The notes beneath the pieces are model-generated. The model had not been told where the DNA came from and made no database searches. It was given only the letters and a program-made list of their open reading frames with translations. From NCBI GenBank assembly GCA_026026165.1, contig JAPEUD010000056.1, forward strand, positions 62,001-126,000: DNA of 64,000 bases, in the 5' to 3' direction. Source of the stretch: Sarea resinae. Lineage: Eukaryota. The translations under genes and the position numbers were made by a program. The stretch's first letter is position 1. Each line of letters opens with the position of its first letter. Shown piece after piece: positions 3,900 through 33,628 of the stretch.

Positions 3900-5651
3900 G
3901 CGAAAAGATGATGTTACACGAATGGCCGGTAGGGAAGAGAATTGCCAGTCCTTTTTTGTAGGAGGAAGATATTATGAGACTAGGTTAATTTTCATAGTAG
4001 AAGCAGAAGATCAGTCAGGTATCTTCTCCTAATGTCTGCTCTGGGGTATGTATGGCTTGTATTCTGCCATCCCGACTACAGAGAGAGGTTTCAGACTCCC
4101 CAACTACAGGGAGCCTCCGGAGGGGTCGTTTCGCCGCTGGGTAGCCGGATTATTTATTCGCTGATACTGCAAAACGCAACCAGTGGACGCTGGAAAGGGA
4201 TTTGAGTGCTTTTCTCCATCGGCAAGAGAATGTACAATTGATCTTCTTGGTCGTGTTGATACCAATTGAAGAGGGGAGTCCTGGTTTGTGGAACTTCAAG
4301 GGCACACCTAACCTTGATAGTTTTGATTTTCAGGTTAGTCTTCAAATTCACTTGTACGAAGTACAACCGAACCCATGAGGTGTGATTGTCGGGGTAGGAG
4401 GAATCGCCCCAGGCCAAAAGCAACGAGAGGTTTTCACCATTGATTATGGCTGGTCTCTCCCTCCAATTCGACGGCATGGAGGGAGAGCACCACCATCCTC
4501 ATGGTAAAACAAGATGTGAGAGTCTCAGACGTTAGCGATTAGAACCAGTCTGAATGTATAAGAAATAAGCCCCGGCTTTCGAAGACCGAGAAGCGTAGAC
4601 ATCAGGAGTGGGGTGTCTAGCTGACCTCGAATTGCGCTCGAAGAGCATCGTCTGGCCGCACTCTTTGAGGCGTTTTGACGAAACAGAGAGCGGAAGTGAC
4701 TCATGGGAGACGATTTCGACAAAGTCACAGCATACCTGCAGAAGTAGAGGCGGCAAGCCATGAGTCAGTACAGAGAGCCTTTACGGTATTCAAGCTTACT
4801 GAGGAACAACTTCTGCCTTGCAGCCTCACGTAAAATAAAGGCTGCAACCGTTCTCGAAGACGGACTGTCGATACTGAAGCTTTTAGGATGCACGATCGGG
4901 CTTTTGCTCCCGCCAGATTGGTCGGGATGAAACTCGAGTCTGTTTCTCCTGATATAAAATCGATTACCCCACCCAACCCCATCGACACTGATACTATATT
5001 GAGCGATCCTTCAAGCGCAGGAATCTTGGCCGCAATAGCTCTCATAAGAAGCAACGCTTCACACAGCACTATCCCTCTTCGACGGCCTACCTTGGGCTCT
5101 ACAAGTCTACGATATGAGCTATGACTTATCTAATCCGGAAACCCTGGCGTCTTTAGGTCGGGGATGTTCTTGAAATTAATGTTTTGGGATTGCGAGGCTC
5201 TTGCACACGGATGGAGAGGTGGAGCGGGACGGGTTTGAGGGTCAAGAGAGCGTGGCATTTTTATTAGAGTTATGGCTTCGTGATTGCCAGGCTCTTCAAC
5301 ACGGTTGGACGGGTGCACTGGCATGATGTTGATTGTCACGACTACGCAAAGGGTTTGTTGGAGTTGGATAGGAGTATCAAGGCCTTCCTACGATGACTTG
5401 GCATTGTATGTCCTTTGCATGGGATTATTAGACCGAACAATTAGACCGAGAATGAGAAAAAAGATTTCACTTGCAACTTGCAACGAGAGATTGCCTTATA
5501 TAGTTGTGGAATTTACTCGGGCTACTCTGCGTGCAAAGTAACTCGGTAGAATGAACGACTGCTCATGTGGCTTTTGCTGCCGACCTCCTCGTAGCTAAGG
5601 TAGATGGGCTGGATGTGGTCCCATTACATACAACGTAGTACTGTAGTCGCT

Positions 5652-5828: not shown

Positions 5829-6396
5829 TGGGAAATGATAGTCGAGCAACTTAGCCCTACTCCGTACCTTACCTAGTAGCCCTGGGGGCGATGTACCTCC
5901 AGGGCTGCCCAGGGTCGTCCGGAATGATCATTGCATTGCCCGGGAATGATGCCATATGCCATCATGGCCGACCTGCCTGACTTCGTACATGATGACATCA
6001 ATGTTATTGTATCCCGTCCCTCTCCCACCAATTCAACTCATACTACCCCACACCACAGGGCTAATGGAGCTGCTGTTACACTGATCTTACACCCGACTGA
6101 TTTAAATACCACTTCGACTACGAGACACTTACCTTTCCACTTGCTGCCCCTCAATCAATTTACTGCCAGAAAAATAACATTGTTCATTCACGTAGCCTTT
6201 GACAGAGGTAAGGCTTTATCTTCTTGTCATACGCAGCATGAAGTCGCTCGCACGTCTTCGACTCTCCCACTTCAATTCCGCCATCTCATGCTCATCTCGA
6301 AAGCCTCTGCTCACTCCATGCAACAGATCACTCCTGTACCGTACAGCAAAAGACCCATTCCATTTCAGAGTGCTTCACACCACCGCCAGCTTCAAG

Positions 6397-26330: not shown

Positions 26331-29290
26331 ATGAAGTTCAATATAGAGTGGGTGATGTATGATCTGGAGTCGTCACCACCGTTGTGCTGATCTTGCTCTC
26401 ACCAGCGACCTGCCCGTCCTCTTTCCATACCCTCGGATTTATCCAGGTAAGACCGATGGCGAAGTTTCACGGTATCATGCTAACACATTCAAGAGCAATA
26501 TGCGTGAGTGCTTCTATGAAAGGAACTTGTCTGCCTGTTGTATTGATCCGGTCATCATGTCTTCAGCTACATGTGCGATCTTAAGCGTAAGTTCAACCTG
26601 GCTGTGTGTCGTGTGTCGTTGCGCTGCAATCGTTAAAGCTCATGCCTTCCAGGGACGCTCGATGCGGGTGGCCACTGCGTACTGGAGATGCCTTCGGGGA
26701 CGGGCAAAACAGTCTCCCTTTTGTCTCTGATTGTGGCCTATCAGCAATACTATCCCGAACACAGGAAGCTCATCTACTGCTCCCGTGAGTACCACCGCCG
26801 AATCACATAATCAGCGCACAGCTTGGAGATCTAATAATATAGGTACCATGTCCGAAATCGAAAAGGCATTGGCGGAATTGAAAGCTTTGATGAAATATCG
26901 GACCGAGCAGTTGGGCTACGAAGAGGACTTCCGCGGATTAGGCTTGACAAGTCGAAAGAACTTATGCTTACATCCCTCTGTGAAACGAGAGAAGAGTGGC
27001 GCTGTCGTTGACGCTCGGTGTCGAAGCTTGACGGCGGGTTTCGTTATGGAAAAGAAGGAAAGAGGTGAAGATGTTGAACTGTGCATCTACCATGATGTAA
27101 GCTATGCAACCGGTAGTATAAAATTACGTTTCTAACCCTTTCAGAATCTGTACCTATTGGAGCCACATAATCTCATCCCTTCTGGCGTCTGGACACTCGA
27201 CGGCACTTTGAAGTATGGGGAGGAGCACAAGCAGTGCCCTTACTTCACAGTCCGACGAATGGTATGTTTCCCTGAACTAGACGTCAAGTCGTTTACTAAA
27301 TCAGTCAGATGCCGTTCTGTAACGTCATCATCTACTCTTACCATTATCTGCTCGATCCTAAAATCGCCGAAAGAGTATCAAAAGAGCTGTCAAAAGACTG
27401 TATCGTTGTCTTTGATGAGGCCCATAACATCGACAACGTCTGTATCGAGTCTCTTAGCATTGACCTTACCGAGGATTCTTTACGAAAAGCTACTCGAGGA
27501 GCAAACAATCTCGACCGAAAGATTACCGAGATGAAATCTTCAGATGCAGATAAATTGCAAAATGAGTATGCAAAGCTCGTCGAAGGTCTACGAGATGCTG
27601 GAGACGCTAGAGACGAAGATGCCTTCATGGCGAATCCTGGTAGGACTTTTGTCCATCTGAATGGTATAGGCACTGATGTTTCACATAGCCTTGCCCGATG
27701 ATCTGCTCAAAGAAGCAGTTCCAGGGAACATACGAAGGGCGGAGCATTTCGTCGCTTTCTTAAAGCGATTTGTTGAATATCTCAAGGCAAGCTTGACCTG
27801 CACGCCGCTGCAGAGTCTCCGCTAATGTGGTTCCTCAGACGCGAATGAAAGTGCTGCATGTCATTTCCGAAACTCCGCCCTCTTTTCTGCAGCATCTCAA
27901 AGATTTGACCTTTATCGAAAGAAAACCTTTAAGGTAAAGTCCATGAAAACGCATAGCTCACGATCCATTTCTAATCGGACTCAACATTTTAGATTTTGTG
28001 CTGAACGCTTGACTTCCTTGGTCCGCACATTAGAACTTTCTAATATCGAAGACTATCAACCTCTGCAAGAAGTGGCTACATTTGCCACGCTAGTCGCAAC
28101 CTACGACACAGGATTTCTTCTAATCCTCGAACCTTATGAATCCGAAACCGCTACTGTACCAAATCCCATCCTTCATTTCACCTGCCTTGATGCTGCGATA
28201 GCCATCAAGCCAGTCTTTGATCGTTTCAGCTCTGTCATTATCACTTCTGGTACCATCTCGCCTCTTGAAATGTATCCCAAGATGCTCGGATTCACTACAG
28301 TTGTTCAGGAGTCGTACAGTATGACACTGGCTCGTCGTTCATTCTTGCCGATGATCGTCACCAGAGGCAGTGATCAGGTCGCCATCAGCTCTGGCTTCCA
28401 GATACGTAACGAACCGAGTGTCGTCAGGAACTACGGGAACCTTTTGATGGAATTTTCCAAGATTACGCCAGATGGGGTTGTCGTCTTCTTCCCTAGCTAT
28501 CTATACATGGAATCGATCATTAGCATGTGGCAGGGAATGGTAAGGGGCCACTCTATACCTCTGAAATGTGGTGCACTAACTCTTGTAGGGCATCCTTGAC
28601 GAGGTCTGGAAGTACAAGCTCATTCTTGTCGAGACACCCGATAGTCAAGAGACGTCACTGGCACTTGAGACATATCGTACCGCTTGTTGCAATGGACGAG
28701 GCGCTATCCTCCTCTGTGTGGCCCGGGGAAAGGTTTCTGAGGGTATCGATTTCGACCATCACTATGGTCGCACTGTCATCTGTATCGGTGTGCCTTTCCA
28801 GTACACCGAAAGTCGTATTCTCAAAGCGAGGCTGGAGTTCCTAAGGGAGACGTACCGCATCCGCGAAAACGATTTCCTCTCTTTCGACGCCATGAGACAC
28901 GCAGCACAGTGCCTTGGGCGCGTGCTTCGAGGGAAAGATGACTACGGCATAATGGTACTTGCCGATAGGCGTTTTCAAAAAAAGAGGACTCAGCTCCCGA
29001 AATGGATCAATCAGGCCATGCTGGAGTCTGACACAAATTTGAGTACTGATATGGCGGTTGCCAGCGCGAAGAAATTTTTGCGGACTATGGCTCAGCCTTT
29101 TAGAGCCCAGGACCAGGAAGGCATTAGCACGTGGAGTCTCAGAGATTTGGAGAAGCACAAAGAGAAGATGGAAGAAGATAAAATCCGAGAACTTCAGAGC
29201 GGAAACACTGATGGCACGACGATAAAACGGCCGGTGGATGAATTTGGCGACGATGATGTAGAGGCAGCGATGATGGAGATGGATGGATAG
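26331..29290 (+). CDS. RAD3: TFIIH 5'-3' DNA helicase XPD (Rad3/Rad15), multi-exon
   Basis: Spliced N-terminus [49 protein letters not shown]. Also [12 protein letters not shown] (Fe-S region), [27 protein letters not shown] and [16 protein letters not shown]. Confidence 0.97.
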
Positions 29291-29733
29291 TCGGCATTTT
29301 CTTGTTGGATAGGTAGGCGTTCAGGATGGCCAGGTATTTCGGACAGGGAGTCCATCGGCGAACGACAATTCAGACGAAAAATGCTATTTCCGGATCGCTC
29401 CTTTCTCATTCGTGTCATTCACGCCCCCATCATCCACGTCAAAACATTCACTCTCTTGTTGCTCTACGACAAACGTACCAGCCACCCACATTGTAATAAT
29501 GACAACAACCCAATTGACCACCGTCTATCTCACGAGCGCATCCATTATCCTTCATCTCAATCATGAACCAGACCTGCGCCATCAATCGACCACCGATTCT
29601 CTAAGCTCATCACTTCTTTCCTTGGTCTTGCTCCACTCAAGTCCGATATCCACTCAAACCTCAAATACCACCCAAATTCGATATTCAAAATTGATACTCA
29701 TTTCATCGCATTTTTACCCCACTACGACTCACG

Positions 29734-30586
29734 ATGGAATCTGTTCAATTCAATGCCGAAATGGAGCTTGAGTACCCTCAGACCACAAGCTCTGCTTCTG
29801 CCGGTTCGTTCTGCCGCAATGGAGCTGAAGACCAAATGGGCCTCTCTCTGGCCATCGATAGTCTAATTGCGGATACGCGCATGGACGTGGAGATGTCTTA
29901 TGTTTTCGGAGGCCTCATTATGGGTGAAGCTCAACGTTGTGACATGAGTAATGTAAGCGACCACTTTCTTCTTCTAACCTGTTGGCACTTCTTTTGTGTC
30001 TTCCAAACAGATATCGAGAGACAAATGCTATCTACGTTGTCTACTTCGTATGCTAATGACAATTTAGGGGGACCCGTCCTACGAGCTAGACCAGAACCTC
30101 CGGGAGGTGTGTCTACAATTCTCACTTGTGCGTTCTTCCTCGTCTCCATTTCGTATATCTTTTCGAGTCGCTCTTTGCTCCAAAAGAGTCCTGTCATACT
30201 CTTTCAAGTTCATATTACCCGAAGACTAGAGACATAGACTAACAAAAAGTCAGATGGCAATATCACAAGTACACCACGAACGAGACGAGCATCTGAGCCT
30301 CAAGGAAAGCAATAAATTGAGGGAGTGGGTTGGCAACAAGAAAGACAAGACCGGTCGAAAGAGAACGGATGCGCCCCGAACTGAGACAAAGGCGGGCAAG
30401 ATCAAACGAAGTGCTCTACCAAAGAGTGGAATGGCAACAACGCTCCGTACACGAGTGCTCCAAGAAGGTAGTGGACGGGGACGGGGACGGATTTTGGGGG
30501 AGCAGAACAGGATCACCAAGCTCAGGCCCCAGGACTTAAATAAGGCTATCAAGGCACGAGCCATGAAGAAAGCAGGGCAAGTTTGA
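29734..30586 (+). CDS. Hypothetical 196-aa protein, paralogue A of an inverted pair (acidic N-terminal motif, Lys/Arg-rich C-terminus)
   Basis: Exons 29734-29952, 30068-30106 and 30254-30586. Phase-0 introns gtaagc..gctaatgacaatttag and gtgtgt..gactaacaaaaagtcag. Motif DQMGLSLAIDSLIADTRMDVEMS is shared with paralogue B. Confidence 0.72.
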
Positions 30587-30802
30587 GGGTGGAGCGGGTG
30601 GGGATGGTCCACTGGAGCAGAACGGAAGAGCTACTCGGTTTTTTCTTTCTTTTTTTCGTTCTTTTCTGTTTGACGGGATGGTCGGCTCGCATTTCGTATT
30701 TCCCATGGCCTGGATAGTCCTGGGATGTTGGATGGCCTGGATGGGCTTCGGATGTTGGATCTGTCTTATCTCTCCTTATCTGTATACGATGCTCCCGCCC
30801 CA

Positions 30803-30872
30803 GGAGTCGAGCTGTGGCTCGCCCTACTCCCCCCTCGGGGGTCGAGCTGTGGGTGGGCTTACTCCTCCTAGG
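30803..30872 (+). repeat. Two tandem 35-nt hairpin-capable repeats downstream of paralogue A
   Basis: GGAGTCGAGCTGTGGCTCGCCCTACTCCCCCCTCG followed by GGGGTCGAGCTGTGGGTGGGCTTACTCCTCCTAGG. Confidence 0.9.
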
Positions 30873-31447
30873 GGTGAGAGGGCATGATGGGCCGATCGAA
30901 ATTCCGCATAGTATCAGACGCGTAACACCCTCTCCGCCGGCTCCTTTATTCTGTTCTATCTATCTTGTACTACTCGTGGCATACCAAAAAACCTAGAGCA
31001 ATCAAAATCGCCCAAAAAAAAAGGTTGAAAGCATCCAAAGAGTTCATTCGCATATGCACGAGCTCATTTCGCGGAGAACTGCGTGCTTTGACCAGACCGT
31101 GAGAATATAGAAGCAAAGTGTTATTTCTTTTGCTTTGATCTATCCATCCGGTCTGTTGTCTTCTAGTCTCACATTACTCGTCTCGCTCACTCGTCGGTAG
31201 TCGAAGACCACAGCTGATGCTTGAGAGGAAGTCTTGTTTGTTTCTTGTCTCGTTTTCTACCGCAGTTCTAATACCCATTCTATGACATGTCCAGTGGCTA
31301 TGGCAACAGCCACGAAGACAACGACGACTTCACACGACTCAGGGGGGTGGGGGGCAGCTCGAGTGACGAAGGTTCACGAGAACTATGCAAACAACACCAG
31401 TTGGATATGAATTACCAGCCAACGAGTGAGCTTTCCGGCGCCACTAA

Positions 31448-31465
31448 GGCTACATGCATGTAGCC
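31448..31465. repeat. Perfect 18-bp palindrome
   Basis: GGCTACATGCATGTAGCC equals its own reverse complement. Confidence 0.95.
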
Positions 31466-31702
31466 CGTCAAACATACACGATTGACTCGGATTCTTATGC
31501 TCATACATCATCTGTGGACGGGATGTCATGATTCAGCAAGGCGTGAAAACATCAGTAACATATAAAGGCTTTTTTTCTCTTTGTTTGTGCGACTCTGGAG
31601 TCTTTTATGTCTGTAGATACAGAAGGGTAACATGTTCCGAGGAAGAGGGAGACCCCTGTGCCTTATACTGGAGACCGACTAGCGCCCAAAAGACACACCT
31701 GC

Positions 31703-31823
31703 CCGAGGAAGAGTAGGCCACCCACAGCTCAACTCCCGCAAGAGGAGTAGGGTCACCCACAGCTCAACCCCCGAGGGGGGAGTAGGGCGACCCACAACTC
31801 GACTCCGGGGGAAGGAGTAGGGT
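31703..31823 (-). repeat. Three (plus one partial) tandem 34-35-nt repeats downstream of paralogue B
   Basis: Minus strand: GGAGTCGAGTTGTGGGTCGCCCTACTCCCCCCTCG / GGGGTTGAGCTGTGGGTGACCCTACTCCTCTTGCG / GGAGTTGAGCTGTGGGTGGCCTACTCTTCCTCG. Confidence 0.9.
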
Positions 31824-32108
31824 AGGCACAGAAATGAGAGACGAAATCGTGGCAAGCCATCCAGAGGACGAGATAGCAAATGGAAAAAGAAAAGCATGAA
31901 AGATGTTTCCAACCCACAAACCTAACCTCCAGACAAGAACTTTCCCCAGGTTAATCCCCGATCATTCAATCACAGTAAAGAAACAAGATAACAAGAAAAG
32001 GACATGACAGACCCCATCGCCCGCTGTCTGTCTCTTCTCCCGTAACTTTCTCTGATCATGCCTCAGCCCAGCCTCAGACGATCACTTTTCCTCTGCAAAC
32101 AAGCCGCA

Positions 32109-32864
32109 TCACTTTCTCTTGGCCACACCATTGTTGGAACCCTTCTTGCCCGTCCCGAGGACTGGACTTGCCCTTCTCTGGGCCTTCGATCTCCTCTCGA
32201 GACGGCTATCCGTCGGAGGGCTGGAAAGAATGTCGCCCTTCTTGCTACTCTTTCGACTAGTCTTAGCATTTCTAGCTTCCGATCTAGCCTTCAGCGTCTT
32301 GGAGGGGCGACTTTCGACGCGTGATAAGTCCAGCTACCCTTCGTCAGTCTATGGCTCTCCCACTAAGGCTAGATAAGGAGCAGCAGGGCAAAGTGATCAA
32401 CGATATCGATCACTTGAGTGAATGACGAACAAGAGAAAATAAATAGCACACCTCTTCGAGCATGTGCTTCGGATGTACTTGCATGTAATACGCGAAGCAG
32501 TTGCCCTCGGGGTCGCTTGCCAATTCTTCGTAGTGTTTCAGGCCTTTGTTGCCGGCAAACTAATCGACATTAGCATCGAGTGCGGAAGGAGATGTTATAC
32601 TGTTTGAGACAGATCTCTTCTAAATATATAGGGAGAGACTAGCCCTCAAGTGGGAAGAAAAAAGGGTAAACTGACAGCTTCAGTCGCCATCGCGGTGTTT
32701 GCGCAGGCCATATCAAGGGACCCAATCAATGAACTCAGATCAACCTCCATCCGAGTATCTGCGATCAGGCTATCGATAGCCGCAGAAAGATCCATCGAAT
32801 CGCCATGGTACTCGAATGCTTGAGGGGCGCAGAATGCGTTGGAACCGTAAACGGAAGATGTCAT
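32109..32864 (-). CDS. Hypothetical 173-aa protein, paralogue B of the inverted pair (possibly C-terminally truncated)
   Basis: Exons 32864-32676, 32559-32452 and 32333-32109. Phase-0 introns gtcagt..gctaatgtcgattag and gtgtgc..gactgacgaagggtag. Motif DSMDLSAAIDSLIADTRMEVDLS, with a basic exon 3 (LDLSRVESR...GVAKRK*). Confidence 0.68.
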
Positions 32865-33628
32865 CTTCTCAATTATGATATTGAGCGAAGGGTAGGCACG
32901 AATGATTGAAGCGAGTATTTTGATGAGCTGAGAGGCAGAGAAGGACCCAGACGAAGACAATGATGAGCTTAGACTCGCAAGCCAGGCCTTGGATGAATTT
33001 CGTGATGAGCGTAGAGTGGCAGACCAAGAATGATAGAGGAAATTATGGGCTGAGAGGATCAATTCAGGTGGATTTCCAGAGGCTGGTTCGTGTTTGAAGA
33101 AGGAAAAGAAGGAGAAGAAGGAAATCAAGAAGGCGGATGATAGTTGCGCAAAGAGACGCGTGAATGAGAAGTGCGGAGTTGTGGGTGGCTGGGTGGGGCG
33201 ACAGCGGTATTCATTCACAACATTCATAGATGGAAGGGACGAGAGGATGGAGTGAATGTTTTGATGTGAATGACGTGGGCGCATGGTGGGTGTAAGTGGT
33301 ATAAACAGGGAAGGAGCGACCGCGCGAGAGAAAGGGGGAAAGCTCGAGGAGGCAAATGATGAACGAATGTGGTGAGCAGCGGCAACGGTAAACCACAGGG
33401 TGCAGCATGGCGTCGCAAAAGGACGAAGAATGTGTTGTATTTAGGATACAGCTCTTACGCCGAAGAGTGAACAATCTCTGCCTCGAGCAGATAGATAGAT
33501 AGGTCATCTTATCTTGCCTTCATATATTCAGACGCCTTAGCTATGCCGACCAAGTGTAAAGAAATAGAAAGAAGACTTCATGGAGTCACACAGACACGGA
33601 ACGATAATTACTCATTCAATCAATCAAT

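Follow-up and report, generated by a model that had tools for sequence, protein, structure and literature searches.

A conserved 35-nt tandem repeat behind two diverged convergent paralogues of Sarea resinae, and the long RNA hairpin that it is predicted to form

The convergent gene pair and its duplication

The window analyzed here, a 64-kb stretch of fungal DNA, contains two paralogous genes that converge tail to tail, A on the + strand and B on the − strand, with a stop-to-stop distance of 1522 nt. Gene A (29734–30586, +) comprises exons at 29734–29952 (or from the ATG at 29761), 30068–30106 and 30254–30586, the last including the TGA stop that ends at 30586. Its spliced product is 100% identical to the NCBI entry 'MAG: hypothetical protein M1819_005360 [Sarea resinae]' of 187 aa, a small orphan protein with the motif AIDSLIADTRM at its N-terminus and a basic C-terminus. 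For gene B (32109–32864, −) we constructed our own model, with exons at 32676–32864, 32452–32559 and 32109–32333 including the stop (32109–32111); the frame is intact and encodes a protein of ~173 aa. The introns of gene B, as read from the sequence, have canonical GT..AG ends and branch-like sites CTAAT/CTGAC, and intron 1 occupies the same aligned place in the two genes. The neighboring genes are ordinary, namely a Helicase_C_2 (Rad3/XPD-type) gene that ends at 29290, a gene for a large RNA-polymerase subunit at 34.2–38.8 kb and a listerin-like gene at 23.6–25 kb.

The two proteins can be aligned over 56 N-terminal residues only, of which 26 are identical (46%), including the AIDSLIADTRM motif; the C-terminal parts, both basic, gave no alignment. 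Of 52 third codon positions compared, 22 agree, which is near saturation. Within the 26 identical residues the third position is shared at 11, three of which are methionine. Judged by this alignment, gene B is a diverged paralogue of gene A.

How far does the family extend? Pfam has no family for either protein when searched with four exon translations, and returned a single sub-threshold match to DUF7558 (E 0.11). The ESM Atlas gave no usable match, and its own model has a pLDDT of 0.50. Word-based protein searches, in which exon 1 of gene A and an A+B profile were used as queries at longer lengths, returned solely the gene A protein. A HMMER search of 1.84 billion representatives with the gene A protein gave four matches at E ≤0.001, of which one is the gene A protein itself and two are weak (E 1e-4 and 3e-4). 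The remaining match, a bacterial 'tandem-95 repeat protein' of 4106 aa, was rejected as a relative on a BLASTP E of 38. The gene B protein is absent from the results of both the word-based and the HMMER searches. A scan of the metagenome collection with the protein profile produced 442 pattern matches, none of which was confirmed. Thus neither the protein libraries nor the metagenome collection yielded an orthologue or any family member beyond A and B.

The duplication was mapped by comparing the A locus with the reverse complement of the B locus using blastn. Conserved islands run colinearly, with those at 29422, 29478, 29600, 29836 and 30769 in A corresponding to 33281, 33192, 32973, 32795 and 31841 in B. 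The outermost is a 32-nt element at 29422–29453 (+) with its inverted partner at 33250–33281 (−), 88% identical over 32 nt (E 2e-6) and situated ~280–420 nt upstream of both paralogues. Its 23-nt core, CATCCACGTCAAAACATTCACTC, matches at these two sites only in the window, compared with 0.00 matches expected. Downstream of this element, and colinear with it, are two exact 13-mers (29478/33192 and 29600/32973). The 32-nt element is probably a promoter element shared by the two genes. From the sequence comparison, a whole gene unit was duplicated here in inverted orientation long ago, with its upstream region, coding sequence and 3′ region, and nearly everything has diverged to saturation between the two units except for a few short islands.

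The 35-nt arrays and their conservation

The 3′ region of each gene contains a tandem array of a 35-nt unit, ~205–290 nt after the stop. A first-pass annotation of the DNA had recognized units behind both genes, and a degenerate pattern for the unit matches exactly five sites in the 64-kb window, all within the stretches it gave, at 30803–30829 and 30838–30864 in A, and 31711–31736, 31745–31771 and 31780–31806 in B. No match is expected in 64 kb, and none of 100 shuffles gave any. The array is real and non-random. The distances from the stops had also been given correctly (the first GGAGT is 216 nt after the TGA of A, and the B array ~285–300 nt from the stop of B), as had the identities of the units; aligned in the register then used, the first pair of units shows 2 differences in 35 positions, and the second pair agrees at 28 of 35. 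All the short strings cited for pairing are present, comprising GGAGT/GGGGT...ACTCC, the ACTCT of the last unit of B, CGAGC-TGTG-GCTCG in unit 1 of A, and the pairing string at the unit junction, which we read as CCCCCC-TC-GGGGG.

Tandem Repeats Finder lists the B array at 31702–31822 with a period of 35 and 3.5 copies, and leaves the two units of A unlisted; a repeat search places the latter at 30792–30826 and 30827–30861, 77% alike. In our register array A (30792–30896, +) consists of A1 (30792–30826), A2 (30827–30861) and a decayed third unit (30862–30896) that matches B3 at 19 of 35 positions and is an addition to the two units previously counted; the block that can be aligned to B is 30769–30873. 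Array B (31702–31826, −) is made up of B1 (31783–31817), B2 (31748–31782), B3 (31714–31747) and a partial fourth unit (31702–31713), with a partial unit upstream of B1. The similarity between A and B begins at 30769 in the blastn alignment, ~25 nt ahead of the first unit.

Some further features of the 3′ regions were observed. Just before the 35-nt array of A there is a 27-nt tandem repeat (30705–30760, +; 2.1 copies, 86% matches), while B has at the aligned place only a single stretch containing CTGGATGG. Reading the sequence ~125–140 nt past the arrays we find runs of adenine, A9 at 31014–31022 (+) and A7 at 31569–31577 in the − sense. If these are poly(A) regions then the arrays would lie inside the 3′ UTRs.

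The arrays are not coding. As the annotation had stated, a peptide repeat is ruled out, there being 4 synonymous compared with 9–10 non-synonymous codon differences in every frame. A repeat-encoded peptide or short open reading frame was rejected, with stops in two frames and an open frame that lacks an ATG in A. Nor is this a catalogued RNA. The comparison with Rfam that had been proposed (cmscan of 29000–33600, E up to 10) gave no match on the arrays, and just two weak matches elsewhere in that region, scoring 20.7 bits where 58 are needed and 17 where 42 are needed. Searches for tRNA and tmRNA found none, and a scan for bacterial-type promoters and terminators gave nothing above shuffles.

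The arrays had been described as far more conserved than the proteins, and in this our alignments agree. In the blastn comparison of A and B the arrays are 83.2% identical over 101 nt (E 2e-24), against 75% over 56 nt for the best coding island, that of AIDSLIADTRM, and this stands beside a protein identity confined to the 26 of 56 N-terminal residues and the 22 of 52 matching third codon positions. With third positions so near to saturation, the arrays are not simply leftover similarity. The core of the array is identical at 49 of 54 positions, and at 20 of 20 in 30820–30839. Taken in steps of 20 nt in an ungapped register, identity is 4–8 on both sides and rises to 20 of 20 at the center, so that the profile is bell-shaped. 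The units resemble one another by position, with 30 of 35 matches between A1 and B1 and 31 of 35 between A2 and B2, compared with 26–28 of 35 when units of the same array are set side by side. This places the origin of the array before the split of A and B, or before the last homogenization or exchange between them; on this alignment two to three units at least were in place by then, and there has been no internal homogenization since.

Conservation takes the form of one peak where units 1 and 2 meet; in A, unit 3 has decayed. Repeat number and multivalency are thus not what is kept, and what is conserved looks like a single element of ~50–80 nt. On the sequence comparison, the arrays are either under constraint or were homogenized later.

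Could such similarity have arisen without function? A tract of ~100 nt might have been converted between the inverted arrays, or a foldback or MITE-like element of ~1.07 kb (30769–31841) might have landed between the convergent genes. Foldback elements have terminal inverted repeats built of subrepeats, and terminal inverted repeats are present here. The arms at 30776–30874 and 31735–31833 are each 99 nt in length, 81% complementary and 860 nt apart, giving the foldback geometry of two inverted ~100-nt arms of short tandem subrepeats flanking ~0.9 kb; moreover, nearby inverted repeats are good partners for conversion. Yet when the outer edges of the arrays (30725–30800 and 31815–31890) were compared there was no direct repeat of at least 5 nt exactly, or of 8–11 nt with one mismatch, and a target-site duplication of at least 5 nt was rejected on this basis. 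Nor did further copies turn up in the sequence that was searched. Within the 64-kb window nhmmer with the five units found no further copy (next E = 7), a covariance model run with filters off found the two arrays and then nothing better than E = 0.44, and the unit pattern has 0 matches in the metagenome collection. A placement of contigs at 80% likeness or more assigned 3 of the 402,563 records of one DNA run, which may be the source, all to this locus, and none from two further sets; as it did not report the two arrays as fitting each other, its sensitivity to 100-nt matches at 83% is doubtful, and it carries no weight on dispersal. Each arm belongs to one of the duplicated gene units and has the same colinear place in it, with other conserved islands upstream. 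Conversion would have had to act on a 100-nt tract in otherwise unalignable DNA, without flanking homology. The identity profile is bell-shaped and not a sharp-ended block, and the 17% divergence follows a pattern that preserves base pairing on a single strand, as described below. We therefore consider it unlikely that the similarity arose by either route, and the arrays are very probably constrained.

A predicted hairpin across the unit junction

What might be the structure that is kept? The first-pass annotation had envisaged a multimer in which each 35-nt unit folds into its own hairpin. The outer 5-bp helix of such a hairpin does pair in 5 of 5 units, yet it varies on one side only, and the inner helix is formed in 72% of cells. 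The covariation check suggested for the five units was negative, as the covariation in 176 of 500 shuffles was as high as that observed. The per-unit hairpin was rejected as the selected structure, in the absence of covariation and with the conservation peak falling on the junction of units 1 and 2 instead. The multimer of hairpins should be replaced by a model in which one hairpin is formed between units.

In the predicted fold of the mRNA-sense strand one arm is the C-rich 3′ half of unit 1 and the other the G-rich 5′ half of unit 2; several of the pairs are G–U, and the CUCG loop falls at the junction of the two units. This hairpin appears in the minimum-energy folds of both arrays, and in the RNAalifold consensus. 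It occupies 30796–30876 (+) in A, with 30 pairs in the consensus and an 18-bp core at 30816–30859, and 31733–31813 (−) in B, where the core is 31750–31793. The core lies within arms of ~19–22 nt around the 4-nt loop, and can be extended to ~30 bp with bulges. In the minimum-energy folds of the whole 3′ regions (444 and 549 nt) 18 of 18 core pairs survive, with a mean pair probability of 0.94.

The differences between A and B are compatible with this structure on the sense strand only. RNAalifold gives 30 pairs and −43.4 kcal/mol for the sense strand, compared with 23 pairs and −29.65 kcal/mol for the antisense. None of the 30 pairs of the sense consensus is broken between A and B, the only two sequences compared; two pairs are changed on both sides (C–G to G–C, and G–U to U–A) and four have changed on one side through wobble. 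To avoid circularity the fold was taken from one copy alone, and the 20 differences of the other copy were scored upon it. When 20 substitutions were placed at random in 5000 simulations, the share of runs that kept as many pairs was 0.2% going from A to B and 0.04% going from B to A, although this partly measures the avoidance of the conserved center by substitutions, whatever the cause. We therefore also kept the positions fixed and randomized the new bases (kappa 2, i.e. a transition weight of 2, matching the observed 10:10), giving P values of 0.017 and 0.013 for the sense strand, compared with 0.64 and 0.66 for the antisense. The structural support is accordingly P ~0.015 from two sequences, which is not covariation in the usual sense.

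Of 42,634 windows of 51 nt taken from both strands of the 64 kb, 28 are at or below −26.4 kcal/mol; the B hairpin, at −30.2, is tied as the most stable of all, and the A hairpin is at −27.0. Compared with dinucleotide shuffles the gain in energy is modest, the z-scores being −2.3 (matched by 4 of 200 shuffles) and −1.9 (by 6 of 200). Folded as single sequences the antisense strands are about as stable as the sense, at −45.0 and −44.7 compared with −51.2 and −44.2. The C-rich and G-rich halves will pair regardless. Of the proposal that the arrays encode a structured RNA element, what stands is the fit of the sense-strand substitutions to a fold (P ~0.015 compared with ~0.65 on the antisense strand); what falls is its form as a multimer of unit hairpins.

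The same conservation might be read as a sequence-specific binding site rather than as structure. The CCCUACUCCCCCCUC tract could be bound in single-stranded RNA by a protein of the KH/poly(C)-binding type, or the repeat could be read in double-stranded DNA by a roadblock terminator or insulator factor acting between the convergent genes, with the 35-nt repetition providing multivalent binding. Invariant in all five units are 19 of the 35 columns, more than the pairing model alone needs, and many positions predicted to be unpaired are conserved as well, such as GCUGUGG; the modest thermodynamic excess over shuffles points the same way. There is also a precedent, tandem C-rich elements of 3′ UTRs being known targets of KH proteins. 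The DICE is a tandem CU-rich repeat, and like the array it is pyrimidine- and C-rich. It lies in the 3′ UTR of r15-LOX mRNA and exerts post-transcriptional control. It is bound there by hnRNP K (PMC3615732). However, in that metazoan system the element is described as read in single-stranded form and many copies matter, whereas in Sarea the prediction places the C-rich tract in a helix, and conservation is limited to the first 1.5–2 units. The single peak at the junction and the decay of unit 3 in A mean that multivalency has not been kept. Furthermore, a sequence or DNA site does not predict substitutions that are compatible with pairing on the sense strand only, among them the double transversion of C–G to G–C. 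A binding site of either kind thus seems to us improbable.

A hairpin with arms of ~19–22 nt and a small loop would also fit a Dicer-size duplex, and the element might be a source of small RNA, either as a microRNA-like precursor for a Dicer-like enzyme or through a read-through dsRNA of ~70 bp that feeds RNAi and so couples the two paralogues. It had been pointed out that read-through transcripts could fold back into dsRNA, and the predicted transcripts indeed pair the two arrays, through 69 base pairs on the + strand and 70 on the − strand. But a duplex between arrays follows automatically from any inverted homology, and selection for it would not favor G–U-compatible changes within one strand. 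We rate a role in small-RNA production as distinctly improbable. Slighter still is the chance of a self-contained post-transcriptional circuit, in which the basic, disordered proteins would bind the hairpin of their own and of the sister mRNA in auto- and cross-regulation, or read-through over the 860-nt spacer would generate dsRNA and mutual silencing, the convergent pair acting as a toggle. Were that to be so, a tandem duplication of 35 nt would have given rise, in the hairpin, to a new RNA motif restricted to this lineage.

A selected stem-loop and its possible role

We favor the reading that a selected stem-loop is present on the mRNA-sense strand in the 3′ region of both paralogues, and assign it a rough probability of 0.45. 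The changes between the two diverged copies preserve one long RNA hairpin behind each, and for this reason the element is probably a regulatory or termination signal that they share. The raw material of the hairpin would have been the tandem duplication of 35 nt, with selection keeping the hairpin and not the number of repeats. It would function as a cis-acting RNA element through which the transcripts of both paralogues are treated alike. We infer that the element is transcribed and that the hairpin forms in vivo, and that there may be an RNase III step. In the likeliest mode an enzyme of the RNase III type would recognize the transcript, either nascent or mature, in the manner of Rnt1, Pac1 or a Dicer-like protein; cleavage at the hairpin could then end transcription between the convergent genes, set the level of the transcripts, or both. 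The form of the hairpin and its place, a few hundred nucleotides past the stop in a long convergent intergenic region, fit the RNase III substrates of ascomycetes. Taken by itself, we nevertheless regard an RNase III-type mode, by cleavage or termination, as a rather unlikely proposition.

The closest parallel is in Schizosaccharomyces pombe, where substrates of Pac1 are reported to have stems of 23–32 nt and loops of 3–5 nt, and where mfs2 and its paralogue SPBC530.02 have in common a 37-nt stem-loop through which cleavage by Pac1, termination and repression are directed (PMC8421224). The features taken from that report as typical of a Pac1 substrate, a stem of at least 20 nt, possibly with bulges, and a loop of 3–5 nt, are found in the Sarea hairpin as predicted. 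As the S. pombe element is presented there, the two hairpins are alike in having a stem longer than 20 nt, with bulges and a loop of 3–5 nt, and in being conserved between two ascomycete paralogues, and the role proposed is also the same, that is co-transcriptional cleavage, termination and repression, which in Sarea is a prediction. There are differences too. The S. pombe hairpin is described at the start of the ORF, whereas that of Sarea lies 205–410 nt after the stop; the two have no sequence similarity, and the Sarea hairpin is constructed from a 35-nt tandem duplication.

In position the element resembles the fail-safe terminators for Pol II in Saccharomyces cerevisiae, such as the Rnt1 site in the unusually long intergenic region downstream of NPL3 (PMC2779338). 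In each case the hairpin is downstream of a protein-coding gene, in a long intergenic region and a few hundred nucleotides past the stop. But according to the same source Rnt1p requires an AGNN tetraloop capping the stem, and both copies are predicted to have the loop CUCG; lacking the defining feature, the hairpin was rejected as a substrate of the Rnt1p type. Substrates of that type are cut 14–16 nt from the loop. A literature search for fungal 3′-UTR tandem-repeat stem-loops common to paralogues gave nothing relevant among the matches listed, on which we base no claim of absence from print.

The predicted hairpin is of a known kind, here in a new instance behind two orphan genes. If our reading of a selected stem-loop holds, it provides a natural example of how a tandem duplication can create a long RNA hairpin, one that selection has kept in two gene copies whose proteins and neutral sites are by now barely recognizable as related. 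Few hairpins are known that paralogues share and that direct RNase III cleavage or termination, and a case from a 3′ region in a filamentous ascomycete would join them. The finding reaches no further than a single pair of orphan genes in a fungus that has been little studied, and the element itself is small (~50–80 nt), concrete and of a size suited to a reporter.

Other repeats and stable hairpins occur in the window. A 72-nt tandem repeat is found at 2697–2885 (2.6 copies, 72% matches). Near-perfect palindromic hairpins at 4445–4497 and 5864–5916 reach −29 to −30 kcal/mol per 51 nt on both strands; these are as stable as the hairpins of the arrays, and are unrelated to them in sequence.
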